64,000 nucleotides of DNA, from assembly GCF_001677475.2 (NCBI RefSeq), contig NZ_CP015229.1. The stretch is one strand, 5' to 3'. The stretch is from Escherichia coli. GTDB lineage: Bacteria > Pseudomonadota > Gammaproteobacteria > Enterobacterales > Enterobacteriaceae. The translations under genes and the position numbers were made by a program. Below, piece by piece: positions 46,974 through 47,467 of the stretch. The stretch's first letter is position 1; every line of letters begins with the position of its first letter. The notes under the pieces were generated by a model that had not been told where the DNA came from, ran no database searches, and saw nothing but the letters and a program-made list of their open reading frames with translations.

Positions 46974-47180
46974 ATGAATTTTATGCGACAGGGATTAGGC
47001 ATCGCCTTATTACCAGAGTTAACGCTGAAAACCATTGCAGGTGAATTGTGTTCCGTTCCTCACGAACCAATCTTCTATCGACAGATTTCGTTGTTGGCTA
47101 AAGAAAAGCCGGTAGAAGGCAGTCCACTGTTTTTACTACAAACGTGTACGGAACAACTCGTGGTGAGTGGAAAAATTTGA
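46974..47180 (+). pseudogene. yfaH: C-terminal remnant of a LysR-family regulator (yfaH-like)
   Basis: 68 aa ORF resembling a LysR substrate-binding domain C-terminus (GLGIALLPELT...); no N-terminal HTH domain present. Confidence 0.6.
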
Positions 47181-47335
47181 TGTGAGACATGAGATTGATG
47201 ACAAATGTAAGATTGCCTGATTCGCCACACTTAGTTGGCCTGTAGTCTTTACCATGCGTAATAATTCGTTTTCACCTGATTTTGGTCCACTTTGTGAATT
47301 AGCGATATATATTTATCCAATTTAGGGAAGTGACA

Positions 47336-47467
47336 ATGACTCCAGGTAGAAACCGGTATGAAGCGCCCGACTCACTGTCAAAACCGATTGTTGAGAGTAA
47401 TGACACTCCGGCGAACAGTACACAGTTTACTCTGGAGCCATTCTCAATCTGCAAGTGGGATGCCTAA
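47336..47467 (+). CDS. candidate small protein (43 aa), hypothetical
   Basis: ATG with AGGGAAG Shine-Dalgarno 7 nt upstream; normal-GC segment just left of the AT-rich islet; below the 60 aa cutoff of the ORF track. Confidence 0.3.
   Translation: MTPGRNRYEAPDSLSKPIVESNDTPANSTQFTLEPFSICKWDA

Follow-up and report, generated by a model that had tools for sequence, protein, structure and literature searches.

In EHEC O157:H7, the MFS-LysR segment between inaA and glpQ is known as 'O island 97' of EDL933 (z3494, z3495), and its LysR-type regulator Z3495 has been described as laterally acquired, as binding to the promoter of rcsF, and as an activator of LEE genes that promotes colonisation (PMC10819331). 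The Sakai annotation gives the full-length gene at this position the name yfaH (ECs_3122, 292 aa). In E. coli K-12, yfaH is a pseudogene that has long been catalogued and is already known (NF007272/PRK09729); it comprises an open reading frame (ORF) of 68 codons, a deletion junction and the flanking stub of an MFS transporter gene, as in the K-12-type genome L003.

Small proteins provide a further point of comparison. Validated E. coli small proteins (at most 50 aa) are in many cases membrane peptides. For the Sakai strain, a RIBOseq study has reported 465 novel intergenic genes (PMC5597208).

In this study, we describe the inaA-glpQ interval in a 64,000-nt stretch of E. coli DNA, referred to as the window. 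The locus is orthologous to that of Z3495/ECs_3122 of EHEC O157:H7, but the window retains only residues 213-292 of the regulator, at 88% identity (BLASTP), which amounts to 27% of the protein and includes no DNA-binding domain, so that the roles reported for Z3495 in rcsF promoter binding and LEE activation cannot apply to the remnant. With K-12 yfaH, the window has in common the 68-codon ORF, the deletion junction and the MFS stub, but differs in that a 1.7-kb islet comes next instead of the putative glpQ terminator, and in a few private substitutions. Inside the islet, an ORF of 43 codons resembles the validated small proteins and the Sakai RIBOseq genes in size class, intergenic location and possession of a Shine-Dalgarno (SD) sequence, yet it is not in the RIBOseq list, has no hydrophobic helix, unlike many of the validated small proteins, and shows no conservation past the species and, in its few substitutions, no significant signal of purifying selection.

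Taken as a whole, the locus is very probably best explained by the combination of a deletion remnant, yfaH, the insertion of an islet and a 43-codon ORF that arose by chance. Its weight for new biology is small, the one element being a known pseudogene and the other a small ORF with no positive evidence of function.

Organization of the inaA-glpQ interval

The window lies in the nrdA-nrdB-yfaE-inaA ... glpQ-glpT neighbourhood of Escherichia. Between inaA and glpQ it contains an ATG-started ORF of 68 aa, a gap of ~465 nt with the 43-aa ORF and an ORF of 356 aa, and the GC content falls from ~41-44% to 26-36% from about 47470 onward (Table 1). In the ancestor, the backbone would have been nrdAB-yfaE-(inaA)-MFS-LysR-glpQT, upon which two separate events, a deletion and an insertion, are superimposed.

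Table 1. Features of the inaA-glpQ interval, in coordinates of the window
Feature	Position	Strand	Description
inaA	46109-46759	-	nrdA-nrdB-yfaE-inaA ... glpQ-glpT neighbourhood
MFS transporter stub	46842..46943	-	Residues 363-396 of the 396-aa ECs_3121/Z3494, divergent neighbour of the LysR gene; BLASTP 91% over 34 aa
Deletion junction	46933..46945		13 nt matching both sides of the lost segment (L002 2121-2133 and 4001-4013); exact shared core CAGATAAA
yfaH pseudogene	46938..47180	+	Residues 213-292 of a 292-aa LysR-type regulator; ATG-started 68-aa ORF at 46974-47180
Islet	47190..48902		1.7 kb, between the LysR stop (+9 nt) and the putative glpQ terminator hairpin; absent from K-12-type genomes, E. 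albertii, Salmonella and Citrobacter
43-codon ORF	47336..47467	+	Peptide MTPGRNRYEAPDSLSKPIVESNDTPANSTQFTLEPFSICKWDA; SD-like AGGGAAG upstream
Diversity trough	47338..47587		pi 0.005-0.017 vs 0.02-0.05 in flanks (sliding pi, 8 haplotypes); covers the ORF and downstream non-coding DNA alike
356-aa orphan gene	47646..48716	+	ECs_3123 (annotated in Sakai); ~30% GC
Hairpin GGATGGCGCATGAACGCCATCC	48903..48924		Downstream of glpQ; 9 nt after the LysR/yfaH stop in islet-free genomes
glpQ	stop near 48937		Right boundary of the interval

The adjoining core genes (the end of yfaL, nrdA, nrdB, yfaE and inaA; 40000-46930) reach no more than 97.6% identity over 6.9 kb with the best match among 5,426 complete E. 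coli genomes. This ceiling suggests that the window derives from a somewhat, or even unusually, divergent Escherichia lineage, or from one that is absent from the genome collection. In the E. albertii contig, inaA is reduced to a 142-nt remnant (L030 2496-2637), and the Salmonella and Citrobacter loci (L031, L033) have no inaA at this position, yfaE there abutting the MFS gene.

The yfaH remnant and the 1,880-bp deletion

According to the first-pass annotation, which was made from the letters of the window, only a C-terminal, yfaH-like piece of a LysR-type regulator survives at this site, and the comparisons bear this out. The 68-aa ORF matches the entire 68-position NCBIfam equivalog model of YfaH (NF007272; positions 1-68/68, 153.1 bits against a cut-off of 139), and homology to the regulator reaches upstream of the ORF start, back to 46938, the 80 in-frame codons at 46938-47177 aligning with residues 213-292 of the O157:H7 protein. 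In the intact O157 orthologue, Pfam places the HTH_1 domain (PF00126) at residues 3-63 and the LysR_substrate domain (PF03466) at residues 88-267. Both features of a functional LysR-type regulator, an N-terminal winged helix-turn-helix (HTH) and a complete effector-binding domain, are missing from the remnant: a Pfam search of its 80 aa yields no HTH_1, and of the effector-binding domain only the final ~80 of ~200 residues are left, with a LysR_substrate match that stays below threshold (23.8 bits vs a cut-off of 28) and covers profile positions 131-187/209 only. A full-length LysR gene is not present within the 64,000 nt. Such a gene, about whose existence elsewhere the earlier annotation had asked, does occur at this very position in O157:H7 (ECs_3122/Z3495) and in further E. 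coli genomes.

Back to back with yfaH lies a second stub, overlooked in the first-pass annotation, which consists of the final 34 codons of the gene for the MFS transporter. The PGAP annotation flags it as 'incomplete; missing N-terminus' in L001 and L003, and calls yfaH a pseudogene in the related genomes L001, L003 and L005. When the window is aligned by BLASTN with the O157 locus L002, positions 46001-46945 correspond to L002 1188-2133 and positions 46933-49200 to L002 4001-6268; the two blocks overlap by 13 nt with an exact core, CAGATAAA, which points to the loss of 1,880 bp between short direct repeats. Relative to L002, the window lacks 1,084 nt at the 5′ end of the MFS gene (2027-3217, minus strand) and ~645 nt at that of the LysR gene (3369-4247), together with the 151 nt that separate these divergent genes. 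A single deletion between the CAGATAAA repeats took MFS codons 1 to ~362, the divergent intergenic region and LysR codons 1 to ~212, including the HTH domain, and left two back-to-back C-terminal stubs, an internal ATG in the LysR stub opening the 68-aa 'yfaH' ORF. Exactly the same junction is found in K-12-type genomes: positions 46001-47189 of the window align unbroken across it with the K-12-type L003 (97.1%), and the pair of PGAP pseudogenes is identical in kind.

In E. albertii, Salmonella and Citrobacter, the LysR gene is found at the same place, in the order yfaE-MFS-LysR-glpQ-glpT-glpA, which argues that the complete MFS-LysR pair is ancestral and that the state of the window and of K-12 results from deletion. 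The identity of the LysR orthologue declines as would be expected from species relatedness, from 90% in E. albertii and 81% in Salmonella to 76-78% in Citrobacter and 69% in Klebsiella. Contrary to the description of the regulator as laterally acquired (PMC10819331), the synteny of the outgroups, together with the stubs of both genes in the K-12-type L003, argues that the 'island' is ancestral enterobacterial DNA that was deleted from K-12-type strains and from the window, and not DNA that was gained. Loss through a microhomology-flanked deletion changes the reading of the distribution of O island 97 among pathotypes. The strain from which the window comes is consequently without the regulator by which LEE genes are activated via rcsF in EHEC.

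Judged by its sequence, yfaH in the window is a dead pseudogene, because it is without a DNA-binding domain and its own upstream region has been deleted. That the 68 residues are instead a working mini-protein, kept from the effector domain of the regulator, is scarcely credible: although the ATG-started ORF is maintained in both K-12-type and window-type genomes and has an NCBIfam equivalog model of its own, the ratio dN/dS between the remnant and the intact gene is ~1, as against 0.06-0.29 for inaA and glpQ in the same comparisons, some genomes have lost yfaH entirely, and the missing HTH, the truncated effector domain, the deleted upstream region and the PGAP calls all speak against such a product.

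The 1.7-kb islet

The proposal that this intergenic region is a site of past rearrangement has likewise stood up, with the deletion junction, the islet and a documented history of rearrangement. The K-12-type L003 aligns with positions 46001-47189 and 48904-49200 of the window only, which defines 47190-48902/3 as a presence/absence segment, and the islet is carried by 1,047 of the 5,426 complete E. coli genomes. Where it is absent, the junction consists of the LysR stop, 9 nt (TGTGAGACA), the hairpin GGATGGCG...CGCCATCC and the glpQ stop, an arrangement shared by E. albertii, by K-12-type E. coli and by the E. coli loci L013 and L014, which have a full LysR gene. The hairpin is read as a putative glpQ terminator, at a place where the consensus scan made no call.

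Neither islet DNA nor a peptide like that of the 43-codon ORF was found in the outgroup loci (E. albertii, Salmonella, Citrobacter), and a search of plasmid and phage collections for the source of the islet found none, the sole 'plasmid' match being a 4.9-Mb record of chromosome size. Together with the compact junction common to E. albertii, these results argue for an insertion specific to E. coli. As an earlier event, a 1.7-kb, mostly AT-rich islet would have been inserted between the LysR stop and the hairpin in part of the E. coli population. On the alignments and outgroup loci compared here, the deletion, the insertion and the polarity of both are established. A direct-repeat origin of the islet-free junction of K-12-type genomes was considered and rejected, since the ends are ambiguous by 1-4 nt only and the outgroup shows the islet-free state to be ancestral. 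At the right end of the islet, positions 48875-48889 form a degenerate copy of the sequence from the hairpin to the glpQ stop at 48925-48939 (CCGGTAGTAGCATTA vs CCTGCAGTAGCATTA), which may be a trace of the insertion event.

The presence and absence of the MFS-LysR segment and of the islet are found in all four combinations in E. coli, and the site is a rearrangement hot spot. A fifth state is represented by L015, which has lost everything between inaA and glpQ. Different E. coli strains (L004, L016, L017, L021, L022) carry independent insertions of IS1, IS5 and IS91 within the LysR gene and the islet or next to them.

The 43-codon open reading frame

The 43-codon ORF had been placed just downstream of the LysR remnant, in DNA of normal GC content at the left edge of the islet. 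With respect to composition this is correct (49.6% GC), but the ORF belongs to the islet and not to the flanking backbone: it starts 146 nt inside it, within the GC-normal left 280 nt, and lies 178 nt upstream of the 356-aa gene. Its peptide is exactly the one that had been given, and the ORF list has it as 45 aa, from an upstream GTG. Its SD sequence, which had been called convincing, is present and good though not exceptional, ranking among the best 2-4% of ATGs in the window: the predicted anti-SD pairing upstream of the ATG is -6.5 kcal/mol (best 3.9% of 2,108 ATGs), and that of the commoner E. coli allele -7.3 kcal/mol (best 2.1%). The description of the ORF as unannotated was also essentially right, given that PGAP leaves it blank in 60 of 60 evenly sampled genomes and that Sakai has no gene there, although it is now and then called as a hypothetical protein (WP_001301743.1 in L004; UniRef A0A0K6DQ02). 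In the numbering of EDL933, Z3495 (LysR) and Z3497 (glpQ) stand on either side of Z3496, which we infer to be the 356-aa gene, so that no Z number would remain for the 43-codon ORF.

Taken simply as an ORF, it need be no more than chance: when the 465-nt intergenic stretch was simulated with a first-order Markov model, an ATG-started ORF of 43 codons or more turned up in 44% of the simulated sequences, and the real stretch has two of them. The peptide, acidic and hydrophilic, has no hydrophobic segment; in its exact form in the window, it is absent from a collection of 15 billion proteins.

The conservation of the frame, which the first-pass annotation had named as a check, gives a divided answer, since the frame is kept in nearly all E. 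coli carriers but shows no synonymous excess and has no counterpart outside E. coli. Open in nearly all of the 1,047 carrier genomes, it is nonetheless embedded in DNA that is at least 96.6% identical over the ORF among all carriers, and other frames remain open as well: of 13 reliable haplotypes, 10 have an intact overlapping ORF of 72 aa in the +2 frame, and all 13 have an open antisense ORF, of 25-67 aa. For these reasons, the preserved 43-codon frame says little. It would stay open through the near-identity of its carriers and not through selection on the peptide, and the locus carries the lesson that a good SD sequence and a frame open in ~1,000 genomes can go without a coding signal when the carriers are nearly identical.

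Substitutions within the ORF are few. The 13 reliable haplotypes differ by four nonsynonymous changes (L14P, K16N, F39C, T43A), two synonymous changes and one stop-to-stop change, and the 4:2 proportion corresponds to a crude ratio of ~0.6, which is not significant, the counts being far too small for a dN/dS test. Three of the six sense-codon substitutions fall at third positions, a point that counts against a chance ORF. F39C and T43A are private to the window, and the best full-length match to the 470-nt stretch that bears the ORF reaches at most 98.7% among complete genomes. Between the window and O157, the ORF has accumulated no synonymous and two nonsynonymous substitutions, as against a dS of 0.10-0.16 in inaA, glpQ and the 356-aa gene, which indicates that the ORF is conserved at the nucleotide and not at the amino-acid level. 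A metagenome scan with a flanking 35-mer returned seven contigs, none of which added a haplotype to the substitution counts.

The frame is also broken in nature. In L009 and L010, contigs that come from independent samples, the same insertion of 1 nt (AA to AAA at 47413) disrupts it, and in L010 the called neighbours (the 356-aa gene and glpQ) are full length despite the frameshift. A third frameshifted variant (P0006/L011) was discounted because its assembly is noisy, with 24 gaps over 4 kb and many split genes. Among 5.8 billion proteins, homologues of the peptide form six clusters, all at the level of E. coli, three of which are frameshift products, and its 90% cluster comprises 75 distinct sequences, including radical replacements (G4D, R5G, P3L, Q30P, P35S, K40M) and a stop loss. 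The codon-usage log-odds of the ORF are -0.04 per codon, a value no different from that of two of the other frames, and 98.7% of 43-codon segments taken from genuine genes of the window score higher. Unusual codon usage and a lack of homologues are common in genes that are young or horizontally acquired, and negatives of this kind are weak when taken singly.

AT-rich islets are often silenced under laboratory conditions. The Sakai RIBOseq study, which covered three laboratory conditions only, has no entry at 30776xx-30780xx (the ORF being at ~3,077,84x in Sakai) and no matching peptide in its supplementary tables (PMC5597208). Neither the peptide nor its coordinates left a trace in the supplement of 'The Cryptic Bacterial Microproteome'. 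In view of the frameshifted lineage, the 4:2 changes, the lack of relatives outside E. coli and the absence from the RIBOseq list, the suggestion of a genuine small protein finds no support; the ORF most likely arose by chance and is not a functional gene, a judgement drawn from negative evidence.

The low-diversity tract and alternative readings of the ORF

Nowhere in the 2-kb polymorphic locus is a 100-nt stretch less variable than the one with which the ORF begins (pi 0.005), and the low diversity does not end with the ORF. Variable sites make up ~6% both of the ORF and of the 178 nt of non-coding DNA after its stop, as against 11-12% upstream and in the 356-aa gene; correspondingly, the window and O157 are 98.5-98.9% identical in the ORF and the tract downstream, 89.7% just upstream and 92.5% in the 356-aa gene. 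The locus is a mosaic in which haplotype groupings differ between segments, and the trough could thus equally be a younger recombination tract of ~300 nt with no function. On the plus strand near the ORF, a consensus scan found no sigma-70 promoter or terminator; no Rfam family was found in 46700-49000 at a permissive E-value; and the folding of 47300-47650 is not unusual on either strand against shuffled sequences (z -0.5 and -1.55), for which reason a structured RNA at the ORF was rejected. With the upstream region of the LysR gene deleted and no promoter-like site in view, any transcription of the ORF in the window would need an unrecognised start.

The chance ORF would lie upstream of the 356-aa gene or in its leader, which is compatible with a tentative possibility, about which we remain doubtful, that positions 47336-47645 constitute a cis element of that gene, whether promoter, 5′-UTR or binding site for a silencer, to which the ORF is incidental. 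Such an element would explain why low diversity extends from the ORF through the non-coding DNA as far as the 356-aa gene, why identity between the window and O157 is so much higher there than on either side, and why the substitution pattern in the ORF is not codon-like; against it stand the absence of a plus-strand consensus sigma-70 promoter, the ordinary folding, the lack of an Rfam family and the mosaic structure, a more recent common ancestry of the 300-nt tract by recombination yielding the same trough with no function involved. A more specific form of regulation, in which the ORF encodes a leader peptide (uORF) that controls the 356-aa gene by attenuation, is very improbable: the ORF does lie on the same strand, 178 nt upstream of the gene, with an SD sequence, but there is no terminator-like or alternative hairpin between the two, folding is no stronger than that of shuffled sequence, no regulatory amino acid is repeated in a run within the peptide and a spacer of 178 nt is long for coupling.

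We also consider it distinctly unlikely that the ORF is a genuine small protein restricted to E. coli, carried on the islet and perhaps of recent or de novo origin, which would use its own SD sequence for translation and might act with the 356-aa protein. The SD sequence and ATG, the frame that is open in nearly all 1,047 carriers, the minimum of diversity over its 5′ 100 nt and the occasional annotation by gene callers would fit such a protein, but conservation runs unchanged into non-coding DNA, codon usage is not specific to the frame, nonsynonymous changes outnumber synonymous ones by 4:2, and by 2:0 in the lineage of the window despite the neighbouring dS of 0.10-0.16, relatives are restricted to E. 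coli, one lineage in nature has the frame broken by an insertion, the gene list of the Sakai RIBOseq study does not contain it, and in the window the LysR promoter region upstream has been lost and no consensus promoter was found. Put more broadly, the proposition that the ORF, or the 250-nt low-diversity tract around it, is a functional element of the islet, serving the 356-aa gene as a regulatory leader or encoding a micro-protein that is young and confined to the species, is unlikely. If true, the diversity trough would reflect selection instead of recombination history.

The 356-aa orphan gene

For the 356-aa protein, no family was found in Pfam, NCBIfam, PADLOC or PHROG, and its relatives among 1.84 billion representative proteins are E. 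coli-level fragments only, so that it offers no clue to the function of a partner peptide. Since the 43-aa peptide likewise matched no family in these four collections, the reading of either product as phage cargo or part of a defence system was set aside. A search of genome contigs with the 356-aa protein led to a single contig, the 3.5-kb L012 (JAIJJM010000334.1), deposited as part of a Collinsella sp. MAG. Over the ~2 kb compared, it is 99.9-100% identical per segment to the E. coli locus L007, and a Collinsella carrier was rejected, the contig being very probably E. coli contamination of the bin.

Between allele classes, the dN/dS of the gene is 0.57-0.75. Its core at 48088-48287 is hypervariable (pi 0.10-0.165), with two deep allele classes that are up to 30% apart over ~150 nt, compared with 2-5% elsewhere in the gene. 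The O157:H7 allele (L002) differs from all other alleles by compensating -1 and +1 indels in two poly-A runs (window ~48238 and ~48274). All alleles are full-length ORFs of 356 codons, and the 'frameshifted' flags that PGAP attaches to the gene in many genomes seem to result from the use of the O157 protein as the reference.
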